Shown: positions 822-40,955 of the stretch, in pieces | Numbering within the stretch: the stretch's first letter is position 1 | Layout: every line of letters starts with the position of its first letter | The notes under the pieces: generated by a model | What the model was told of the DNA's origin: nothing | Databases searched by the model: none | The model's input: the letters and a program-made list of their open reading frames with translations, nothing else | Made by a program: the position numbers and the translations under genes | UHGV virus genome: UHGV-0250353 | Source of the DNA: a virus | Strand: one strand, 5' to 3' | Length of the DNA: 45,006 nucleotides

Positions 822-1472
822 ATGATACCCACAGAAAAAGTAGCTAAGAGTATGTGGCTGCGCGCGAATTATCCCGCGAACAAAAGCAGCAAAACTAGGC
901 GTGCAACTATATGCGATTTTGGCATAAATGATGCCGATTATGTGGTTAGTCCTAAGATAAACGGCAACCGTGAGCCGTGTCCTGCGTACGCTACGTGGCG
1001 AGGGATGATCCAACGTTGCATAGACGTCGAGTATAAAAACAAAAGACCTGCATACAAGGATGTAACTGTGTGGCATGGGTGGCAAAGGTTTATGTCCTTC
1101 CGTAGATGGTGGCTTTGTAATTACGTAGAAGGATGGGAACTAGATAAGGACTTATTCTCTGGTATTAATAAGATATACAGCCCCACCACTTGCATTTTTA
1201 TTCCGCAATGGTTGAATGTTTTTCTACTGGAAAGGAAAAATAGTGGGTCACCTACAGGTGTTTTTTATGAAGAATCAAGAGGTAAATTTAAAGCCTCAGT
1301 GAAATATGAGAAAAAAACTATTAATCTAGGACGTTTTGAAACTCAGGAAGAAGCGCTAGATGCCTACATCGCTGAAAAGATAAGGATAGCAGAATCAAGA
1401 AGATGCGAGATAGAGGCGATAAGAGAAGGTATGTTCGCCCGCGTTATCGCCTTGATAAAAGAGGGGCGTTAG
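822..1472 (+). CDS. AP2-domain putative homing endonuclease-like protein
   Basis: ORF track 216 aa; GGAG RBS before ATG 822; AP2-like segment GVFYEESRGKFKASV...LGRFETQEEALDAY; opposite strand to flanking tail genes. Confidence 0.5.
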   Translation: MIPTEKVAKSMWLRANYPANKSSKTRRATICDFGINDADYVVSPKINGNREPCPAYATWRGMIQRCIDVEYKNKRPAYKDVTVWHGWQRFMSFRRWWLCNYVEGWELDKDLFSGINKIYSPTTCIFIPQWLNVFLLERKNSGSPTGVFYEESRGKFKASVKYEKKTINLGRFETQEEALDAYIAEKIRIAESRRCEIEAIREGMFARVIALIKEGR

Positions 1473-4728: not shown

Positions 4729-4920
4729 ATGTCAAGTTTACCAGTTTCCTTAATTCTGTTTGCACTTCTCGCTTATTTCGCGCCTTTCCTGGTTGCGTAC
4801 TTCCGTAATCATAAAGCGAAGTTGGCAATATTCATGGCTAACCTGTTTCTTGGCTGGGTTCTGCTGCCGTGGGTATTTATTTTAATATGGGCTTGCAACT
4901 CGAACGTGAAAGAGAAGTAG
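4729..4920 (+). CDS. small two-TM membrane protein, superinfection-immunity (Imm)-like
   Basis: GGAGGG RBS then ATG 4729; two hydrophobic helices; FRNHKAKLAIFMANLFLGW...WVFILIWA resembles Imm-type small membrane proteins (from memory, not searched). Confidence 0.45.
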   Translation: MSSLPVSLILFALLAYFAPFLVAYFRNHKAKLAIFMANLFLGWVLLPWVFILIWACNSNVKEK

Positions 4921-4958
4921 GCTACTATAAGACAAATCCTAAACACGAGGAAGTAAGC

Positions 4959-6089
4959 ATGGCCCATAAGAAAATAACCGACGAACAGTTACAGGAAGAA
5001 TTGAACGCCGGAATGAAGAATGCAGACATCGCCCGTAAATACGGCATCTCAGACCGCGTAATTCGTATCCGTAAAGCGAAGCTGGCTAAGAAAGGCGTAG
5101 GCCACGGGCGTGACGTTAGTCACCTTGTCCCGGACGGCTACAAAATTAAAGGGACCTCGTCACTGGTGGACGAGTTCGGCAACACTAAACTTCAATGGGT
5201 TAAGACCGACACCGATGCCGAACGTCAGGTCGAGTTGATGAAAGCCGTAATCGAAGGCATGAAGTCGGAGATTACTCCAGTTGCACCAGTTAAAGCCGTT
5301 CGCGCCAAACGTGACGATAAACTACTCAATCTTTACACGGTATCTGATTTCCATCTCGGTATGCTGGCCTGGGCCGACGAGAGCGGCGACGACTGGGATA
5401 TGAAGATTGCGGAAGACCTGTTCTCTCGCTGGTTCGATGCTGCGTTCCAGAAAGCGCCAGATGCAGGAACAGGAGTTATTAACCTGCTTGGCGACCTTGC
5501 GCACTTCGATAGTCTGGATGCCGTTACACCTGCAAGCGGCCATGTTCTTGACGCGGACACGCGCTATCAGAAACTGGTCCGCTACATGATTCGTATGGTT
5601 CGCCGTGTTATTGATATGGCGCTGGTTAAGCATAAAAATGTTCGCTTGCTTATCGTGCAAGGGAACCACGACGAAAGTGGAATGATTTGGTTAGCTGAGA
5701 TGTTCAGTACGCTGTACGACAATGAGCCGCGTGTGTTTGTCGATACTTCACCAGATGTTTACAAGATGGTGCAACACGGCAAAACGACGCTGTTCTTTAC
5801 ACACGGGCATAAATGCCGGTTTGAGGTTGTCGAACCAATTATGATAGCTAAGTTCAGAAAAGCATTTGGAGAAAGCGAGTACAGTTACGCGCATGTAGGG
5901 CATCTCCACCATCAAAAGATTGTAGAAAGTAGGAATATGGTAGTGGAGCAACATCGCACTCTCGCGGCGAAAGATGCATATGCTTCCCGCGGCGGGTGGA
6001 TGTCTAAGAGGTCCGCTAATGTCATAACCTATAGTTCAGAGTTCGGGGAAGTAGGTAGGCTTTCAATCTCACCGGAGATGCTAAGATGA
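4959..6089 (+). CDS. HTH domain fused to calcineurin-like metallophosphoesterase
   Basis: GAGGAAG RBS then ATG 4959; motifs DFHLG, GDLAHFD, GNHDES, THGH, GHLHH in canonical order; N-terminal ADIARKYGISDRVIRIRKAK HTH-like. Confidence 0.7.
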   Translation: MAHKKITDEQLQEELNAGMKNADIARKYGISDRVIRIRKAKLAKKGVGHGRDVSHLVPDGYKIKGTSSLVDEFGNTKLQWVKTDTDAERQVELMKAVIEGMKSEITPVAPVKAVRAKRDDKLLNLYTVSDFHLGMLAWADESGDDWDMKIAEDLFSRWFDAAFQKAPDAGTGVINLLGDLAHFDSLDAVTPASGHVLDADTRYQKLVRYMIRMVRRVIDMALVKHKNVRLLIVQGNHDESGMIWLAEMFSTLYDNEPRVFVDTSPDVYKMVQHGKTTLFFTHGHKCRFEVVEPIMIAKFRKAFGESEYSYAHVGHLHHQKIVESRNMVVEQHRTLAAKDAYASRGGWMSKRSANVITYSSEFGEVGRLSISPEMLR

Positions 6090-6556
6090 AGTACCTTGAT
6101 GTTTCAAAACAATTTAAATACTGCCCTGATACGGGGCAGGTTACCAGGATATCTACTGGTGCTGAGGTTGGTACGGTTGGTGTAAGAGGATATCTGTGCT
6201 GCGGTATGGGTGGTAAAACAGTATATGTCCACCGCGTAGCATGGTGTCTTTATAATAAATGTGACTTAGACAGGAAAACACAAATAGACCACATAAACCA
6301 TAACAGGCTAGACAATAGAATAGAAAATCTACGCGCCACCGACAATACAGGGAACAGTAAAAATAAAACTATGAGAAAGATAAATAAATCCGGGGCTACA
6401 GGTGTAAGTTTCCACAAAGCCGCGGGTAAGTGGCGCGCGTTTATAAAAGTTAACTACAAACAAGTGCATTTAGGGCTTTACGACGATTTTGATGTAGCGG
6501 TTGCCGCGCGTAAAGCCGCTGAGAGTAAATACGGTTTTCATGAAAACCATGAGTAG
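6086..6556 (+). CDS. HNH homing endonuclease with AP2-like domain
   Basis: HRVAW...QIDHINHNRLDNRIENLR HNH motif; GVSFHKAAGKWRAFI AP2-like; ATGA overlap with upstream gene. Confidence 0.75.
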   Translation: MKYLDVSKQFKYCPDTGQVTRISTGAEVGTVGVRGYLCCGMGGKTVYVHRVAWCLYNKCDLDRKTQIDHINHNRLDNRIENLRATDNTGNSKNKTMRKINKSGATGVSFHKAAGKWRAFIKVNYKQVHLGLYDDFDVAVAARKAAESKYGFHENHE

Positions 6557-19899: not shown

Positions 19900-20169
19900 T
19901 TACAACTCCACATACCCAACACCCCACATAACTAACATCCCGACCGCTACTCCAATCAGAATAGATACTGTCGTATTTGCCCATGTCCGCTGGCTACGCA
20001 AAGTCTCGGCGTTCTCCAGAATGTTGCGAACACGCGTTAAGTGTTCAATCTCCAGTTTCGCGGCTATCAGTTCCTGGGATGCTTTTGAATACTTGCCGTT
20101 AATCTTGTCCAACGCTTTTTTAAGGTCTTTGTTGTTCTTCTTGAGTTGCTCAATCTGTTCCATACTCAC
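19900..20169 (-). CDS. coiled-coil protein with C-terminal TM anchor
   Basis: ORF track 89 aa; hydrophobic C-terminus TTVSILIGVAVGMLVMWGVGY. Confidence 0.5.
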   Translation of the reverse strand: MSMEQIEQLKKNNKDLKKALDKINGKYSKASQELIAAKLEIEHLTRVRNILENAETLRSQRTWANTTVSILIGVAVGMLVMWGVGYVEL

Positions 20170-20372
20170 CCCACTATCTCATCGCCAAGCCACGCCGTTT
20201 CTCGTATATCGTCGACCACACACGCGGCGTGCTCACGGCTAATTGCAAAAATGTAGAAGCTGAACTTCTTCCCGTCGGCGTCGATGTGGTTAACCGCGTA
20301 AGGTTTCCACAGGACGCCATCAATCACTACTGGCTCAGGCGCTTTCATCTTCTTGCCCGACAAAATTGTCAT
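20166..20372 (-). CDS. hypothetical protein
   Basis: ORF track 68 aa. Confidence 0.45.
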   Translation of the reverse strand: MTILSGKKMKAPEPVVIDGVLWKPYAVNHIDADGKKFSFYIFAISREHAACVVDDIRETAWLGDEIVG

Positions 20373-20634
20373 ACAGCGGGATTATTACGTCAGCCCCGTC
20401 CTTTGAAGCTGCGGTTGCCGTGTTGTAATAAGCCAGAGAAGAACTGTCGTCACCGACGAACAACCCAGCATACACGTTCGGTTCTTGCGTCTTAATAGCC
20501 AGTAGCTCTTTAAACGCCTTCAGCTGAAACTCACCGTTAATTGACAGTTGCCCGCCTAACGTCTGTTTCTCCGACTCTAGCACCAGAATACGGCGCTCAA
20601 GTGATGCGATTGTAATTTTAGGCATTGGTGTCAC
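20335..20634 (-). CDS. hypothetical protein
   Basis: ORF track 99 aa. Confidence 0.45.
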   Translation of the reverse strand: MTPMPKITIASLERRILVLESEKQTLGGQLSINGEFQLKAFKELLAIKTQEPNVYAGLFVGDDSSSLAYYNTATAASKDGADVIIPLYDNFVGQEDESA

Positions 20635-20803
20635 CTTTGTTCAGATTGAAGCGGTTAATCAGTTCACGGCGTGTCTCGTAAAGCGACTCAACCATTTGCT
20701 CGGCTACAGCGATTTTGGTATTCAGGACGTGCATCACGTGGCCGATGTCTACGCCGCCGTTAACAGCCTCTACCATCATCTTTTCGTATTCACGGTCGGT
20801 CAT
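20618..20803 (-). CDS. hypothetical protein
   Basis: ORF track 61 aa. Confidence 0.45.
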   Translation of the reverse strand: MTDREYEKMMVEAVNGGVDIGHVMHVLNTKIAVAEQMVESLYETRRELINRFNLNKGDTNA

Positions 20804-20958
20804 TCTTTACGCTCTCCCCACATGCGATTGAGATACTTGTTCTTGTCCGGCCCAGGGAAACTGTTACGTTTCATCAGTTCCTCGCGTGTAGGGAACGGGG
20901 TGTTACTTACTTTACTGCCTACTCGTAATGGTTGGCTTACTTGACCTTGTTCGCTCAT
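20800..20958 (-). CDS. small hypothetical protein (52 aa)
   Basis: ATG 20958 with GGAGAGAAG RBS; ATGA overlaps at both ends; hand translation. Confidence 0.4.
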   Translation of the reverse strand: MSEQGQVSQPLRVGSKVSNTPFPTREELMKRNSFPGPDKNKYLNRMWGERKE

Positions 20959-21104
20959 TTCTTCTCTCCTGCGTAAGCTGCTTTCAGTGTTTGCATCGCA
21001 GCGAACCAGAACGCGTCAGCGGGGATACTGCTACTAAGGTTACTAACGGCGATACGTGCCATCAGTTGTGCGTCTTTGAATGCTTCGATATCTGTGATTT
21101 TCAT
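20955..21104 (-). CDS. small hypothetical protein (49 aa)
   Basis: ATG 21104 with GGAGTAGAGAAG RBS; first gene after promoter 21134..21162. Confidence 0.4.
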   Translation of the reverse strand: MKITDIEAFKDAQLMARIAVSNLSSSIPADAFWFAAMQTLKAAYAGEKK

Positions 21105-21133
21105 CTTCTCTACTCCGTTCTCGTTCTCGTTGT

Positions 21134-21162
21134 CGATGAAGTAAATATAATAGGGTCTACGG
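21134..21162 (-). promoter_or_regulatory. sigma70-like promoter TTGACT-N17-TATATT
   Basis: hexamers read on minus strand, just downstream of tandem terminators. Confidence 0.45.
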
Positions 21163-21184
21163 TAATAGTCAACTAGTCATTACA

Positions 21185-21215
21185 GAAAATAGATAAAAAA
21201 AATCCCGGCTGGGTC
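21185..21215 (-). terminator. intrinsic terminator TCCCGGC...GCCGGGA with U8 on minus RNA
   Basis: 7-bp stem plus A8 run on plus strand. Confidence 0.6.
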
Positions 21216-21289
21216 AGGGCCGGGATAAAACTGGAGAGTAGAGGGATGAAGCAGGAGGTGATTTAAGTATCGTCGGATTAGTCTTAGGT

Positions 21290-21319
21290 GTCAATTGGTA
21301 AAATAAAACCCGGATTCGC
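21290..21319 (-). terminator. intrinsic terminator AACCCGGA...TCCGGGTT
   Basis: 8-bp stem, A/T-rich flank; tandem with 21185..21215 after endolysin. Confidence 0.5.
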
Positions 21320-21457
21320 GGTCCGGGTTTCGGTCATAAGCCCCTGAACCCTACGCAGTCTCCACCGCTTGGGCTGCTGCTTCAGGTTTACCAGGGCTTA
21401 GTATGCAAGCACAAGCAGCGTGGAAGTAATTTTACTAAATGCCTTCGTATTCGTCCA

Positions 21458-21943
21458 TCATTTAACGGCTCTCCCAATAGCCTCAGCCTCTTGCCACGGT
21501 TTACCGTCGAACAGCGCCAGACGCCCGGCTGCACGGCGACGCAGGCCGAGTAATGGTTTGCCGTTCTGGTTGATGAACAGCGCCAGCTTGGCACGCAGTG
21601 TTGCAATATCACCTGAGCGCAGCGCCTTACCCGTGCCAGTAGTAGCCGCAATCACACCAGCACCCGCGTTGTAGACCAGGTCACACACAGCGTCGAACTG
21701 CGCCTGTGTCAGTGAATGGTGCGCCACCGAATCCACCGCAGCTACGGCCTTAGCCATATCGCGATTAAGTAACAGGAGGCCTTGTCCCGGTGTGATGGTC
21801 TTGCCTGGAGTCACGTCCGGCCCGTAGTGGCCGTAGCCAATAGTAAGGTACTTCTCATTCGGCGTAGCACGATACGCAGTTCCGCGGAATCCCTCGAACG
21901 CAGCACAGAAATGCAATCCATTATCTGAAATATTTCGAGACAC
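21458..21943 (-). CDS. endolysin, T4/P22-type lysozyme (GH24-like)
   Basis: ISDNGLHFCAAFEGFRG...YLTIGYGHYG matches phage lysozyme N-terminal catalytic region; GTG 21943 with GGAGGA RBS preferred over TTG 21994. Confidence 0.75.
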   Translation of the reverse strand: MSRNISDNGLHFCAAFEGFRGTAYRATPNEKYLTIGYGHYGPDVTPGKTITPGQGLLLLNRDMAKAVAAVDSVAHHSLTQAQFDAVCDLVYNAGAGVIAATTGTGKALRSGDIATLRAKLALFINQNGKPLLGLRRRAAGRLALFDGKPWQEAEAIGRAVK

Positions 21944-22193
21944 GCTTATGTCCTCCGTATGACAGCCACGCCTGACGAATCTGGCGCAGCGCAACTAATG
22001 TGATTAATGTCTCAGGCAGCGTAGGTGACATGCTGCCCTGTAACAGGTGGATGCATCCGGCGGCGCAGACGATAGCAGTCAGGATATAGAGCACCCGGCC
22101 AAATAATCCGTCGTCCACGCTGGGGTGATACACATTAAACAGCGATGCGCCCCCGATGGCCAGCATACCGCCGAACCAGAATAACTCATTCAT
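21921..22193 (-). CDS. holin/antiholin-like membrane protein
   Basis: 90 aa with two hydrophobic helices, between holin and endolysin. Confidence 0.5.
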   Translation of the reverse strand: MNELFWFGGMLAIGGASLFNVYHPSVDDGLFGRVLYILTAIVCAAGCIHLLQGSMSPTLPETLITLVALRQIRQAWLSYGGHKRVSKYFR

Positions 22194-22494
22194 CCGGGCC
22201 TCCTCGACGTGAGATGTATTCCCCGGCGACGATACCGGAGAGGCGGGAATAGATGGGCATCCAGAGAATGGCGATGATGAATCCGAGGCCAGCTATCTCT
22301 CGCTCCCCAGTAATGCCAAACCATTGCGCGGCAAGAGGTGCACCAAACACGGCACAGGTGAAGCCGGTTGCAATAAAGCAGAAGCCGTCAATGGGGCCAG
22401 AAATAACGGACTTATGTTGTCGTAGTCCGATTACCCCTCCGGCTAGCGCGGCAGCGAGAAGCCAGCCCGTCACTGTTTCAGTAAATTTATCCAA
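22186..22494 (-). CDS. holin (putative, three TM segments)
   Basis: 102 aa, three hydrophobic segments, TTG start with GGAGGA RBS, heads lysis cassette. Confidence 0.55.
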   Translation of the reverse strand: MDKFTETVTGWLLAAALAGGVIGLRQHKSVISGPIDGFCFIATGFTCAVFGAPLAAQWFGITGEREIAGLGFIIAILWMPIYSRLSGIVAGEYISRRGGPDE

Positions 22495-36013: not shown

Positions 36014-36166
36014 ATGACAATGTTTGTATTTTGGACGATGGTAACCCTGCTCGCACTGCTACTCGGCGCAGGAATAGCCGCGATGTTCTGTTATAGCCTG
36101 TTCTTTAAGTTTGTTGGCGTTGCCGTCCTCGGTGGAGCTTTCCTTACATGGGTTCTGCGCGCATGA
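36014..36166 (+). CDS. small membrane peptide (50 aa)
   Basis: hydrophobic; ATGA overlaps both sides; hand translation. Confidence 0.3.
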   Translation: MTMFVFWTMVTLLALLLGAGIAAMFCYSLFFKFVGVAVLGGAFLTWVLRA

Positions 36167-36447
36167 CCCCGGAAGGCAAGATTCAGAAATACGCAAAAGA
36201 GAGGTTCGAGGCCCTGGGCGGCCTCGTTAGAAAATTGTCGTACGAAAATAGAGTAGGCGCTCCTGACCTGCTGGTGATTCTCCCCTGGAGCATCGTCTGG
36301 TTCGTCGAGGTGAAGAAAGACGAAAACACGAAGCCAGACCCGCACCAGCTACGTGAGCACGAGCGGATGCGCAAACGCGGTGCAAATGTTTTTGTCGTTG
36401 GTTCGTTTAAACAGGTTGACGACCTAATAGCGAACTATTATAGTTAG
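36163..36447 (+). CDS. VRR-NUC domain nuclease
   Basis: GAPDLLVI...WFVEVKK PD-(D/E)XK signature; ATG 36163. Confidence 0.65.
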   Translation: MTPEGKIQKYAKERFEALGGLVRKLSYENRVGAPDLLVILPWSIVWFVEVKKDENTKPDPHQLREHERMRKRGANVFVVGSFKQVDDLIANYYS

Positions 36448-36477: not shown

Positions 36478-36669
36478 ATGAAACACGAATATGACCGCAA
36501 ACCCGCACGTGACATCGTACCTGGTGACATGATTTTCAACGTTAAGACCCGTCGTCCTGTTGCCGTTGATACGGTGTACGTCGAGTCGAATGGTAAACTG
36601 GTTATCGAAGATGTAACTGGTAACGTTACGGCGTTCGGGCGTAAAGAGTTAGTTCTGGTGGCGAAATGA
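36478..36669 (+). CDS. hypothetical protein
   Basis: ORF track 63 aa. Confidence 0.5.
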   Translation: MKHEYDRKPARDIVPGDMIFNVKTRRPVAVDTVYVESNGKLVIEDVTGNVTAFGRKELVLVAK

Positions 36670-37349
36670 TTGTCTGGTCATTGTTTGACGGTTCGGGCCT
36701 TATGGCCCAACCGTGGGCAGAAGCAGGCCATACTTGCTATTGTTTCAACTACGACGGTGCCGACCACGGCGACTACGCACGATTGGGCGCAAAAGTTGAA
36801 CACGAGAACATCCACTATATAAACGCGTGGATTGATAATAAGTTCGACTTCGAGGTTGCGCCAGATATTATTTTTTCGTTCCCTCCGTGCACAGATTTAG
36901 CCGTTAGTGGCGCTGCGCATTTCGAAACCAAGCGGAAGAAGAACCCAACGTTTCAGGTAGGGGCCGTTATCACATGTAAAGTGGCTGCGCGTCTGGCTAA
37001 AAAGTACAACGTACCCTATATGATTGAGAACCCGGTTAGCGTTCTTTCGTCTTTATGGCGTAAACCCGATTACGTGTTCAATCCTTACGACTACGGAGGT
37101 TATCTACCGGAAAACGACACACATCCAATGTTCCCAGAGTACATAAAACCGAGGGACGCGTACCCTAAAAAGACATGTCTTTGGGTGGGTAATGGTTTCG
37201 TAATGCCGGTTAAGTCGGGTGTTGCCGTGGGTGATGGGTATTCTGACCAGCACAACAAACTTGGCGGTAAATCAGTGCGGACAAAAACAATCCGCAGCCT
37301 CACCCCGCGGGGTTTTGCAAAAGCAGTTTACGAGGCTAATCATGTCTAA
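36666..37349 (+). CDS. C5-cytosine methyltransferase-like protein (short, no obvious target-recognition domain)
   Basis: motif I-like SLFDGSGL, motif IV-like FPPCTDLAVSG, motif VI-like MIENPV in canonical order. Confidence 0.45.
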   Translation: MIVWSLFDGSGLMAQPWAEAGHTCYCFNYDGADHGDYARLGAKVEHENIHYINAWIDNKFDFEVAPDIIFSFPPCTDLAVSGAAHFETKRKKNPTFQVGAVITCKVAARLAKKYNVPYMIENPVSVLSSLWRKPDYVFNPYDYGGYLPENDTHPMFPEYIKPRDAYPKKTCLWVGNGFVMPVKSGVAVGDGYSDQHNKLGGKSVRTKTIRSLTPRGFAKAVYEANHV

Positions 37350-38766
37350 GTTTCAAAGGCGCGAGTACCAGAAACTCATGACTTCGTTCATGTTGCGGCA
37401 CCATCGCTGTAACATATGGGCGAGCATGGGCGCCGGGAAGACTGGCAGCGTACTGTGGGCATTAAACCGACTGTTCCGCAACGGTCAAATTAACGATGAC
37501 GACCGCGTGTTAATCCTTGCCCCGTTGCGCGTTGCGTCCGGCACATGGCCAGCAGAACAAGAAAAATGGCAATTCCCGTGTCTACGTGTCGTCGATGCAA
37601 CTGGTTCGGAGAAGCGCCGCATCGCGGCGCTGGAGTCTGACGCTAACGTGGTGTGCACGAACTACGAAGTTATCGAGTGGCTGATTGACTACTACGGCAA
37701 AGACGACTGGCCTTTTACGGTTATCGTTGCCGATGAGAGCACGAAACTGAAGTCATTCCGCAGCCGTTCTGGAGGTAGCAAGCGGGCAAAGGCGCTCAGC
37801 AAAGTGGCGTTCGGTAAAGTTAAGCGTTTTATCAACCTGACTGGTACGCCGTCGCCGAACGGCCTCAAAGACTTGTGGGGTCAGAACTGGTTTATCGACG
37901 CTGGCGAGCGCCTGGGGTCGTCGTACACGGCATTCACCGACCGATGGTTTAACTCTGTACAGAAAGGCAAATCCGCGATGGCGCGTGAGTATCATGCGCG
38001 CCCTGGCGCGGATAATGAAATTCACCAGAAGATGAAGGACATCAGTCTTACGATTGATGCCGCTGAGTGGTTCGGTTGTGAAGCGCCGATTATTGTTCCA
38101 GTTGAAATCGACCTGCCGAAGAAAGCACGTCAGGCGTACATCGATATGGAGGAAAAGTTATTCGCGGAACTGGAGAGCGGGGAAGTTGAAGCGGCTAACG
38201 CGGCGGCGAAGACGTCGAAGTGTTTGCAGATTGCATCCGGTGCCGTATATGTATCCGGGCCAGACGGCGACGCAACCAAAGACTGGGAGAAAGTGCACGA
38301 CACGAAACTTGATGCTCTTGAGTCAATTGTTGAGGAGTTACAGGGTTCGCCGCTATTGGTGGCCTATCAGTTCAAGCACGAACTGGAGCGTATCCTTAAG
38401 CGATTCCCGCAGGCGCAGGCGTTTTCTAAAGGTGCGAAGGGTAATAAGCAGATGGAAGCGTGGAACCGAGGAGAGATACCTATGCTATTGATACACCCAG
38501 CCTCCGCAGGCCACGGGCTGTCGCTACAACACGGCGGGCATCACATGGCTTTTATGAGTCAGGGATGGAACCTGGAACACTATTTGCAGGTTATCGAGCG
38601 AATAGGTCCGGTAAGGCAGATGCAGTCTGGGTACAAACGGTCGGTATTCATTTATCAAATAATAGCCCGAGATACTCTTGATGAAGTTGTCTCCGCTCGT
38701 ACAGACGAGAAAAGGTCTGTACAGGACGAACTACTTAACTATATGAAGAGAAGGAGTAAGAAATGA
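37342..38766 (+). CDS. SNF2-like superfamily 2 helicase
   Basis: Walker A GAGKTG, motif II VIVADESTK, motif V-like LLIHPASAGHGLSL; ATG 37342 (ATGA overlap). Confidence 0.7.
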   Translation: MSKFQRREYQKLMTSFMLRHHRCNIWASMGAGKTGSVLWALNRLFRNGQINDDDRVLILAPLRVASGTWPAEQEKWQFPCLRVVDATGSEKRRIAALESDANVVCTNYEVIEWLIDYYGKDDWPFTVIVADESTKLKSFRSRSGGSKRAKALSKVAFGKVKRFINLTGTPSPNGLKDLWGQNWFIDAGERLGSSYTAFTDRWFNSVQKGKSAMAREYHARPGADNEIHQKMKDISLTIDAAEWFGCEAPIIVPVEIDLPKKARQAYIDMEEKLFAELESGEVEAANAAAKTSKCLQIASGAVYVSGPDGDATKDWEKVHDTKLDALESIVEELQGSPLLVAYQFKHELERILKRFPQAQAFSKGAKGNKQMEAWNRGEIPMLLIHPASAGHGLSLQHGGHHMAFMSQGWNLEHYLQVIERIGPVRQMQSGYKRSVFIYQIIARDTLDEVVSARTDEKRSVQDELLNYMKRRSKK

Positions 38767-39092: not shown

Positions 39093-39119
39093 AAGGCCCC
39101 AAACGGGGCCTTAGTTTTA
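39093..39119. terminator. bidirectional intrinsic terminator AAGGCCCC-AAAC-GGGGCCTT + TTTT
   Basis: near-identical to terminator 6971..6996; between convergent replication arm and tailspike. Confidence 0.6.
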
Positions 39120-40955
39120 GATAGATACATTACCAGCAACCTTCCACACACCAGAGCCAACATGAACCCATTTATAAGGTTGCCCTGCAATCGGCGTAAT
39201 AAGCTCCCATCGTGCCCCGTTTCCGAATTGTGTAACCGACACGTCAGGCGGAACGCTCCCGTATACGTGTGCAATGCCATTAATGAGGTACCCGGTAGCA
39301 GTCCAGGATGAAGTACCCCAAACGGTGTAATTACCATTATAGTGTGAGTAGTTTAGCCATGATGTTGAAGCCCCCCACAGGACTCTGGAAGCCTCCGGTG
39401 CAACAGTGTTATCAATGTTAAGAGTAGTGTCATTAACTTGCCAGTATTTGCTAGTATGTGAGCCAGAGAACTCTGGTAAGTAACTTGCTGTAATCGTCAC
39501 ACCGCATTGTGTAAATATGCATGCAACCACACCTGTATCCACAAGGTTAACACCACGGAACCCATTAATAACCATTCTTGACTGATTACACTCAAAGAAA
39601 CTTCCGTGTATTTCTTCGGCCCCACAGCCATCCATCACTACACTAGTACACCCTAAGAATACATAAGCGGAACCAGTTACATAATCCGCGGCACAACCTT
39701 TAAGATTGGAATAAGTAATGTTAGTAAACTTATATGCCCAACGGGATACATTCCTGACATAAACATTATTTAAGTTAAAGGTCGTACCACCAGTATCTAC
39801 AGAAATACCATCTTGAACATCTTTAATGAGAAGTGAATCAAACACCTGAAGCCAGCTATTACTTGTTCGGTACCCTGTCATCACGTTTTCTATATACAGG
39901 TCTTCTAATCGAACCATGTAACTAATCGCGCTATAGATGCCATAGGCATTTTTGGCGGGAGCAGCTCCAATTAAGCTCATCCCAGTTATTCCTCCGGAAC
40001 GACTAAAGTTACCGGTTAAATCACCAGCCTCACTGGAATCCATATCTATAGCGGCGATAAAATCAAGCGAAAAGCTATGCGGCGCACCCTGCCATATACG
40101 ATCAGGAACTGTTTTAATATCGTTGCCTGTTTTGCGTAGGCCGCAGGAGTCTCTGCCAATCCCCTCCCACATGACGCGGGGAGGGCGTATAGCTCCATAC
40201 TTAATATCATAAAAATCTGAGAATCTTAACTTACCTCCAGTCTGTGGAAGGCAAGAATGAATACGCTCAAGAGCTTCACTGTTTTGCTCAGCTGTACGAG
40301 ATGCCATCATGCCGCCGTTCTCTACCGGAATATCGATGTGGCTTCCTGCTCTCTTCCAGCGCTTACCTCCGGGGGTAACAAAAATATTCACACCATCATC
40401 AGCTTCAGAACTGGAAAAGGCTATAAATGTTCCTCCCCCAAGCCCGGGTGTGTCAGAGTAGTAGCCGCGTACCGTGATAACTTGGTTAGATACGGTTGGT
40501 TCTATCGTCCGCAGAGTAGCCACATCGGGGCAAGTTCCTACTAATTTTTCTCCGTCGATTTCGGATAATTCTTCGCGTAAATTCGGGTCGGTCTGCGGCT
40601 TCCAGTTAAAGTTACCAACCGGGTTAAATGATGCGGGGACAACAACCGGCAACGTACCCGCATACGAGTACCACGTCTTGCTTACAGGGTCATACACCAC
40701 TTTGTCGCGGTCATTAACTGTTAACGTACCGCCGGTGGAAAAGTCCCACGATACAGGAGAAAAACCTGCATCGCGCAACACGGCCGGAAGCGTCTTCTGT
40801 GTCTGCCCGGTAACCTGATTTGTCGCGTAATCGATATCAGCGCCACCAGCAACACCACCGGATTTACCGGTGATAACTTCGGCTTCGAAAATCTGGTGCT
40901 TCTTGGCGGTTTGCAAATCCGCCAGGCTTAGAACGTCACCGCATCCGCTTGACAT
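39117..40955 (-). CDS. tailspike / tail fibre with beta-helix-like repeats (putative depolymerase)
   Basis: 612 aa, last gene of tail module; repetitive Gly/Asn/Val-rich middle typical of parallel beta-helix; GAGGA RBS. Confidence 0.6.
   Translation of the reverse strand: MSSGCGDVLSLADLQTAKKHQIFEAEVITGKSGGVAGGADIDYATNQVTGQTQKTLPAVLRDAGFSPVSWDFSTGGTLTVNDRDKVVYDPVSKTWYSYAGTLPVVVPASFNPVGNFNWKPQTDPNLREELSEIDGEKLVGTCPDVATLRTIEPTVSNQVITVRGYYSDTPGLGGGTFIAFSSSEADDGVNIFVTPGGKRWKRAGSHIDIPVENGGMMASRTAEQNSEALERIHSCLPQTGGKLRFSDFYDIKYGAIRPPRVMWEGIGRDSCGLRKTGNDIKTVPDRIWQGAPHSFSLDFIAAIDMDSSEAGDLTGNFSRSGGITGMSLIGAAPAKNAYGIYSAISYMVRLEDLYIENVMTGYRTSNSWLQVFDSLLIKDVQDGISVDTGGTTFNLNNVYVRNVSRWAYKFTNITYSNLKGCAADYVTGSAYVFLGCTSVVMDGCGAEEIHGSFFECNQSRMVINGFRGVNLVDTGVVACIFTQCGVTITASYLPEFSGSHTSKYWQVNDTTLNIDNTVAPEASRVLWGASTSWLNYSHYNGNYTVWGTSSWTATGYLINGIAHVYGSVPPDVSVTQFGNGARWELITPIAGQPYKWVHVGSGVWKVAGNVSI

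Follow-up and report, generated by a model that had tools for sequence, protein, structure and literature searches.

A probable compact Dcm-like DNA cytosine-C5 methyltransferase without a separate target-recognition domain in the replication operon of a Kagunavirus-like phage

The virus genome UHGV-0250353, analysed here as one stretch of 45,006 nucleotides (nt; hereafter the window), contains on its plus strand an open reading frame (ORF) that starts with an ATG at position 36666, stops with a TAA at 37347-37349 and encodes a product of 227 amino acids (aa); the strand opposite this ORF is closed by many stops. From comparison with studied homologues, we infer that this ORF very probably encodes an active DNA methyltransferase that produces 5-methylcytosine (5mC), and that it is a stand-alone (orphan), S-adenosylmethionine (AdoMet)-dependent enzyme of the compact type found in the PHROG 757 family. 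The original prediction, which was made from the letters of the sequence alone, had described a short C5-methyltransferase-like protein lacking an obvious target-recognition domain, and had offered three options for it: a minimal methyltransferase, a DNA base-modifying enzyme, or a catalytically distinct derivative used for anti-restriction. The description is borne out by the fold, by the conservation of the motifs and by the length of the proteins throughout the family. The first option is favoured, as a homologue from phage K42 raises 5mC in vivo and the DNA of phage AAS23 has been reported to be Dcm-methylated, and the other two options are unsupported. The novelty that the prediction implied could not be upheld, because PHROG 757 is already annotated as "DNA methyltransferase" and near-identical proteins are annotated as cytosine methyltransferases. 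Indeed, the family, its annotation, a compact AlphaFold model aligned to DNMT3A, the 5mC activity and the role as a retron trigger are all already public, and this protein is a routine member of PHROG 757.

The protein matched the phrog_757 profile ("DNA methyltransferase") with an E value of 1.3e-85, with aa 1-226 aligned to profile positions 15-219 of 247. Conservation was evaluated in a family alignment of 102 sequences showing 35-89% identity to the query. The motif I-like, Pro-Cys motif IV-like and motif VI-like segments that had been noticed in canonical order are all there; their spacing is similar to that of Dcm, and their conservation in this alignment speaks against chance matches (Table 1). 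In motif I, L6 is at least 90% conserved, and F/Y7, D8 and G11 are also conserved. The residues F7-D8-G9-S10-G11 represent a variant of FxGxG, for which the family consensus is LFDxTG, and hhalign pairs this segment with FAGIGG of Escherichia coli Dcm. In motif IV (FSFPPCTDLAVSG), which aligns to GFPCQ of Dcm, C75 is invariant, while F72, P73, T76 and G82 are found in at least 90% of the sequences. Likewise, motif VI has an invariant E121 followed by N122 and P123, each kept in at least 90% of the sequences, and in the motif VIII-like strand, which spans residues 170-175 in the structural model, Y166 and W173 are invariant and K168 and T170 also reach the 90% level. Over the whole alignment, the invariant residues are C75, E121, P140, Y166, W173 and P181, and the residues conserved in at least 90% of the sequences are L6, G21, F72, P73, T76, G82, K89, A100, N122, P123, R132, F138, D164, K168, T170, R210, S211, P214, G216 and A220. 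The query carries every one of these invariant and near-invariant columns. The distances between motif I, motif IV, motif VI and the motif VIII-like strand are 68, 46 and 47 aa here, compared with 84, 48 and 50 aa in E. coli Dcm.

The protein had been estimated to be about 100 aa shorter than typical C5-methyltransferases. This estimate was correct, and the deficit could be localised: K168 and R210 (in RSLTPRGF) are separated by 42 aa, whereas 161 aa lie between QHRER and GNSV in E. coli Dcm. All of the missing length falls after the motif VIII-like strand and before the RSLTP element near the C-terminus, and there is no separate target-recognition (small) domain in the 227-aa protein. The short segment found in its place includes the least conserved part of the family, at about aa 182-198, with conserved GFxMP and KLGGKS on either side; at this same site, the homologue of Enterobacter phage EspM4VN, which has 285 aa, contains a far longer insertion. 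Nearly all of the PHROG 757-family clusters have a length of 200-260 aa, and thus the shortness is the normal state of the family and not the result of a truncation.

Two further elements distinguish the protein. The first is a conserved, family-specific loop of 29 aa (NPYDYGGYLPENDTHPMFPEYIKPRDAYP), which is mostly coil in the model. In this loop, P140 and Y166 never vary in the alignment and D164 is kept in at least 90% of the sequences, with further conservation at Y143, G145, Y146, H153, P154 and P157. No PDB sequence matches this loop, and the canonical enzymes have no counterpart to it in sequence. The second is the C-terminal element (RSLTPRGFAKAVYEAN), which shares R210, S211, P214, G216 and A220 with at least 90% of the aligned sequences and forms a helix at residues 215-225 in the model. 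The canonical enzymes possess both a motif IX (RxLTxRE) and a motif X (GNxV), whereas the phage protein has this single element (RSLTPRGFAKAV), which is identical to motif IX of Dcm (RRLTPRECARLM) at 6 of 12 positions and lies before the terminal helix, where motif X is expected. It is therefore described here as motif X-like or motif IX-like, an assignment made by position and secondary structure only.

The protein resembles the canonical C5-methyltransferases clearly in structure but only weakly in sequence. A phmmer search of the PDB sequences with the protein returned no match, a sub-profile of the C-terminal part (aa 160-227) also had no match among the PDB sequences, and no NCBIfam model matches the family. 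The hhalign comparison of the family with the single sequence of E. coli Dcm covered motifs I-VI only, with motif I, the PC and the ENV paired, and gave a low probability. For structure prediction, an AlphaFold run with the 102-sequence alignment replaced a single-sequence run that had reached a mean predicted local distance difference test (pLDDT) value of 31.8, and the resulting AlphaFold2 model has a pLDDT of 95.6 and a predicted template modelling score (pTM) of 0.92. When this model was compared with known structures using Foldseek, the first 50 matches were all DNMT3 catalytic domains (E values from 6e-7), and about 181 of the 227 residues superpose on a C5-methyltransferase catalytic domain. 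On the basis of the model, the protein is predicted to have the class I Rossmann-type methyltransferase fold of the C5-methyltransferase kind. It shares this fold with the canonical bacterial type II and orphan enzymes of EC 2.1.1.37 and Pfam family PF00145, such as E. coli Dcm, M.HhaI and M.HaeIII. Motifs I, IV and VI and the motif VIII-like strand also follow one another in the same order and at similar distances as in these enzymes, and the Cys/Glu chemistry is expected to be alike. These enzymes differ from it in having a separate small recognition domain and arginines in motif VIII, where the phage protein has lysine. The catalytic domains of DNMT3A and DNMT3B show only 12-18% identity to the phage protein; in addition, the DNMT3 catalytic domain has a size of about 280 aa, functions as a dimer or tetramer with DNMT3L and has CpG as its target.

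The evidence on function comes from two studied relatives. The Drexlerviridae phage K42 was used to obtain mutants that escape retron Ec86, and in 4 of 4 of these mutants a 711-bp gene named "dcm" was disrupted or potentially disrupted (Wang et al., bioRxiv 10.1101/2023.08.16.553469; later published as Cell Rep 2024;43:114857). The same study demonstrated that K42 dcm expressed alone is toxic only when the retron is present, that K42 Dcm alone leads to high 5mC in the multicopy single-stranded DNA (msDNA) of the retron, as measured by liquid chromatography-mass spectrometry, and that a C82A/E128A/K175A/K176A mutant brings about neither the toxicity nor the rise in 5mC; furthermore, a dcm-type gene was present in 34 of 35 Ec86-sensitive phages (bioRxiv 10.1101/2023.08.16.553469). 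The genome of K42 is 95.4% identical to that of phage KarlJaspers (Bas06), in which the sole gene of this type is bas06_0055. Like K42 dcm, bas06_0055 is 711 bp long, and its 236-aa product shows 56% identity to the product of our ORF over the full length (E 5e-95). Residues C82, E128, K175 and K176 of K42 map exactly to C75, E121, K168 and K169 here. The two proteins are thus alike in family and architecture, and the mutated Cys, Glu and Lys-Lys are all conserved in the product of the ORF, although K42 and KarlJaspers belong to the Drexlerviridae and the phage studied here to the Guernseyvirinae, and the neighbouring genes differ.

The second relative is gp52 of Pantoea phage AAS23, a protein of 235 aa that shows 53% identity to our protein (E 5e-90) and possesses the same motifs. 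For gp52, BLASTP found no conserved domain, and HHpred gave a 99.7% probability for a match to the structure of a Shigella C5-methyltransferase (PMC8004638); the comparison with methyltransferase profiles that had been proposed for the protein of the window is thus already in print for a member of its family. The virion DNA of AAS23 was reported to be both Dam- and Dcm-methylated according to restriction digests with enzymes including EcoRII and MboI (PMC8004638).

Several points weigh against our reading, some of them concerning the protein and others its target. The Pfam model PF00145 scored only 13.9 bits, in comparison with a cut-off of 22 bits, and covered only the N-terminal 89 aa; it matched (E <=0.01) only 8 of the 102 members of the family. 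Similarly, the family profile reached E values of only about 0.7-1 with the PDB sequences of DNMT2 and M.HaeIII, over the N-terminal 85 aa only. The canonical arginines of motif VIII are absent, with Lys found instead, and the acidic residue of motif II that ends strand 2, which is Asp in 93 of the 102 relatives, is Asn28 here. The KarlJaspers protein likewise has Asn at this position, however, and the near-identical K42 enzyme is active. As regards the target, methylation by the phage enzyme cannot be told apart from that by a possible host Dcm in the AAS23 digests (PMC8004638), and the K42 work took CCWGG by analogy with E. coli Dcm, in a host that was dcm+ (bioRxiv 10.1101/2023.08.16.553469). 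The literature searched for methyltransferases of Kagunavirus and for nanopore-derived 5mC motifs of the family contained no direct data on specificity. The CCWGG specificity is an assumption for K42 and digest-based for AAS23, neither study having mapped the methylated motif directly. Finally, in the Drexlerviridae the BASEL study did not see restriction resistance follow in any simple way from the presence of methyltransferase genes.

The missing motif VIII arginines would also fit the view that the protein is no DNA methyltransferase in vivo but either an RNA (tRNA) m5C enzyme similar to Dnmt2 or a non-catalytic protein that binds AdoMet or DNA. Dnmt2 has the fold of a DNA methyltransferase and tRNA as its substrate, which counts in favour of this view. 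However, DNA enzymes ranked above Dnmt2 in the structure comparison, the 5mC found with the K42 homologue was in DNA, and the methylation reported for AAS23 concerns virion DNA. A non-catalytic role is also difficult to reconcile with a catalytic Cys and Glu that are invariant under strong purifying selection. In the comparison with the orthologue of the Kagunavirus SZH-1, to which the gene is 90.0% identical at the nucleotide level and 94.7% identical at the amino acid level, 52 of the 68 differences fell at third codon positions and the dN/dS ratio was 0.053, indicating that the gene has evolved under purifying selection. We consider an RNA-directed or non-catalytic role to be extremely improbable, and a DNA 5mC methyltransferase remains the preferred reading.

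Another explanation is that the group transferred by the enzyme is not a methyl group; notably, it could come from carboxy-S-adenosylmethionine (Cx-SAM) supplied by the host CmoA, and the enzyme would thereby produce 5-carboxymethylcytosine (5cxmC) as does the phage enzyme CmoX. Enterobacterial hosts such as E. coli and Salmonella make Cx-SAM via CmoA for tRNA modification, and the idea was prompted by a structural match of CmoX to the phage protein. The near-invariant Arg210, which is situated in RSLTP just before the last helix, may occupy the position of R350 of CmoX; however, DNMT3A also carries an Arg at the motif X position and yet uses S-adenosylmethionine (SAM), which counts against this explanation. 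In CmoX, the selectivity is attributed to R350, an Arg that replaces Asn304 of motif X of M.HhaI (PMC12783734). The K42 Dcm yields 5mC in E. coli that is CmoA-positive, and the residues S71-F72-P73-P74-C75 form the FPPC of a family pattern [AGS]-F-P-P-C, the signature SPPC of CmoX being absent. Moreover, CmoX genes usually have a phage cmoA and an amide ligase gene as neighbours; neither was found by Pfam scans in the non-structural ORFs of the window or in the annotation of SZH-1, and these also contained no second methyltransferase. CmoX itself (PDB 8yf3; PMC12783734), whose product is 5cxmC, is a full-size enzyme with a chain of 333 residues and the SPPC signature, and a phage CmoA and a ligase are linked to it; the protein of the window is without these accessory features. 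The replacement of methyl transfer by the use of Cx-SAM is thus very unlikely. A combined scenario has only a slim chance of being true, namely that the protein represents the smallest natural architecture of a DNA C5-methyltransferase, with two short reading loops, and that Arg210 also admits the Cx-SAM of the host, such that some 5cxmC or another non-methyl adduct would arise besides 5mC.

The genomic context was used to evaluate whether the enzyme acts with a partner. The phage of the window is a Kagunavirus/Jersey-like siphophage (Guernseyvirinae) that shows about 88-90% identity to the Kagunavirus LM08P2 and the E. coli phage EC3-1 in the methyltransferase region. The gene lies in a replication module, in which the operon order is single-stranded DNA-binding protein, DNA polymerase A, VRR-NUC, methyltransferase and SNF2 helicase, and SZH-1 exhibits the same arrangement around its methyltransferase gene. 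The position predicted for the gene, between a VRR-NUC nuclease and an SNF2 helicase, was confirmed as regards these neighbours, except that an ORF of 63 aa intervenes after the VRR-NUC gene. The start and stop codons of the methyltransferase gene overlap the neighbouring genes at both ends: the stop of the 63-aa ORF overlaps its start as ATGA, and the start of the SNF2 helicase gene lies in its last 8 nt, an overlap of 8 nt that is identical in SZH-1. The methyltransferase and the helicase probably belong to one operon and are translationally coupled.

These overlapping genes bear on the possibility that the protein is the catalytic subunit of a split methyltransferase, as are known in M.AquI and M.EcoHK31I, with target recognition supplied by a second polypeptide. 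The lack of a target-recognition domain (42 aa against the 161 aa of E. coli Dcm) agrees with this possibility, as do the small unassigned ORFs that flank and overlap the gene and the fusion of some relatives to other domains, for example in a helicase-annotated protein of 1,397 aa. Nevertheless, plasmid-borne expression of K42 Dcm alone suffices for both the rise in 5mC and the triggering of the retron. A blastp comparison of the ORFs that flank the gene in six phage lineages revealed no conserved partner gene; the neighbours differ among the Kagunavirus, Drexlerviridae, Krischvirus, Certrevirus, Agtrevirus and Klebsiella phage loci. No homologue of the 63-aa ORF was found beside the methyltransferase gene in the other families compared, and judging from these sequence comparisons this ORF (phrog_4879) is context only and no conserved partner of the methyltransferase. 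The idea that a synteny of methyltransferase and helicase has been kept between the Guernseyvirinae and the Drexlerviridae was also rejected, as the adjacent helicases of the window and of KarlJaspers are unrelated. Because no neighbouring gene is conserved across the phage families, the enzyme appears to stand alone, and a split enzyme is highly unlikely.

Taken as a stand-alone DNA methyltransferase, the protein would consist essentially of only the catalytic Rossmann domain of a C5-methyltransferase. AdoMet would be held by motif I and the end of strand 2, and Cys75 of the FPPC loop would attack C6 of the flipped-out cytosine, with Glu121 of the ENP contacting the base and Lys168/Lys169 standing in for the motif VIII arginines. 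The methyl group would then be transferred to C5, and beta-elimination would free the enzyme. Since there is no separate target-recognition domain, the recognition of DNA must come from short loops, for which the conserved loop at aa 139-167 and the 34-aa segment at aa 176-209 are the candidates. The gene is presumably co-transcribed, and probably translationally coupled, with the genes for replication (DNA polymerase, VRR-NUC and SNF2 helicase), and this co-expression suggests that the enzyme acts on replicating phage DNA, whereas host DNA and the retron msDNA would be methylated incidentally.

As for the target, there is an even chance, or a slightly better one, that it is CCWGG, like that of the host Dcm. 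CCWGG is the most likely target because 84 such sites are kept in the window. With an observed/expected ratio (O/E) of 0.71, this site is mildly depleted, more so than any other of the 16 NNWNN palindromes. A search for the trace that deamination at CCWGG would leave showed no enrichment of CTWGG plus CCWAG taken together (O/E 0.93), a weak signal that is uninformative on specificity. The benefit of the enzyme would be that the phage DNA is guarded from CCWGG-type restriction, for example by EcoRII, when the host Dcm lags behind replication; such an anti-restriction role is about as probable as not, or somewhat more. The cost would be that retron Ec86 (Eco1) responds to this same activity.

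The family is widely distributed among phages. Homologues were found by tblastn in 1,519 phage records, covering the Guernseyvirinae, the Drexlerviridae (Tls "dcm"), Krischvirus (JSE), Certrevirus (CR8), the Ackermannviridae, and Klebsiella and Vibrio phages. The closest proteins, which are up to 97% identical and come from Kagunavirus and Jerseyvirus records, carry the annotation "(putative) DNA cytosine (C5) methyltransferase" or "Dcm". A phmmer search without filters against 1.84 billion cluster representatives, the clusters being defined at 50% identity, recovered 1,205 clusters at E <=1e-3 and 528 at E <=1e-10.

Some of the homologues show unusual features. A 548-aa homologue from the representative library (P0260) contains an intein (Hint plus LAGLIDADG) at residues ~74-404, directly before the catalytic Cys of FPPC; its junctions read GFPP/C...VHN/CTNLSVSG, such that the catalytic Cys doubles as the +1 extein residue. 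In P0235, a further homologue, an HNH endonuclease is inserted. In a homologue of 414 aa (P0267), APPGRD is found in place of FPPCTD, with the loss of the catalytic Cys, along with a long unrelated N-terminal extension, and this may be an inactivated or repurposed copy. The BFVD entry A0A6J5SE15, the 1,397-aa protein mentioned above, comes from an uncultured Caudovirales phage and has a domain of the same fold (28% identity, template modelling score 0.66) fused to a protein annotated as "Helicase/UvrB, N-terminal". Finally, the 44-kb record MG065688.1 ("Campylobacter phage A110b") encodes a homologue that is 73% identical to this protein of an enterobacterial phage; altogether 37 "Campylobacter" phage records match, some of them over only 36 aa, and their host labels may merit checking.

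Table 1. Coordinates of the predicted methyltransferase gene, its sequence elements and its neighbours in the window
Feature	Position	Strand	Basis or remark
Short Dcm-like DNA cytosine-C5 methyltransferase gene (predicted), 227 aa	36666..37349	+	PHROG 757 family
Motif I SLFDGSG, aa 5-11	36678..36698	+	Rossmann fold start, AdoMet-binding loop; strand 1 of model
Motif IV FSFPPCTDLAVSG, aa 70-82, with putative nucleophile Cys75	36873..36911; TGC codon 36888-36890	+	Conservation, Dcm alignment
Motif VI IENP, aa 120-123; Glu predicted to contact target cytosine	37023..37034	+	Conservation, alignment to Dcm ENV
Conserved family-specific 29-aa loop NPYDYGGYLPENDTHPMFPEYIKPRDAYP, aa 139-167, strands 6-7	37080..37166	+	Candidate DNA-contact element
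Motif VIII-like strand YPKKTCLW, aa 166-173	37161..37184	+	Lys replaces canonical QxRxR arginines
Short segment in the place of the target-recognition domain, aa 176-209 (34 aa)	37191..37292	+	Includes variable insert site ~aa 182-198
C-terminal element RSLTPRGFAKAVYEAN, aa 210-225, and last helix	37293..37340	+	Motif X-like or motif IX-like
VRR-NUC nuclease gene (replication/recombination module)	36148..36447	+	phrog_93 E 1e-32; PF08774 weak, E 0.004
63-aa ORF, function unassigned, between VRR-NUC and methyltransferase genes	36478..36669	+	phrog_4879 E 3e-46
SNF2-type helicase gene	37342..38766	+	PF00176 E 3e-13; phrog_62 E 1e-167; ATG at 37342

Other observations were made elsewhere in the window. 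GATC is strongly avoided over positions 1-45006, with 11 sites compared with about 155 expected under a maximal-order Markov model or 176 from base composition, and no Dam-like methyltransferase was found. Several 6-bp palindromes are also rare: AAGCTT occurs 0 times vs. 12.5 expected, GGGCCC 1 vs. 8.8, GGCGCC 2 vs. 16, CAGCTG 2 vs. 12 and CCATGG 1 vs. 5.7. The ORFs at 822-1472 (+) and 6086-6556 (+), the latter following a metallophosphoesterase-like gene at 4869-6089, show matches to HNH and/or AP2-type DNA-binding domains and resemble homing endonuclease genes. At the tailspike position, the gene at 39117-40955 (-) encodes 612 aa, in comparison with a tailspike of 729 aa (20088-22277) in the otherwise syntenic Kagunavirus SZH-1, and this difference suggests that a receptor-binding module has been exchanged.

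For annotation, these findings mean that the gene is to be called a phage Dcm-like cytosine methyltransferase, although it is missed by Pfam and NCBIfam. The gene predicts 5mC in the DNA of the phage, which bears on its evasion of restriction, on its sensitivity to type IV restriction and on nanopore basecalling. Because its homologue is the trigger of retron Ec86/Eco1, the phage may be sensed by that retron. The family also poses a mechanistic question, namely how an enzyme of about 230 aa without a target-recognition domain selects its site in DNA, and such a minimal C5-methyltransferase scaffold could serve in engineering.

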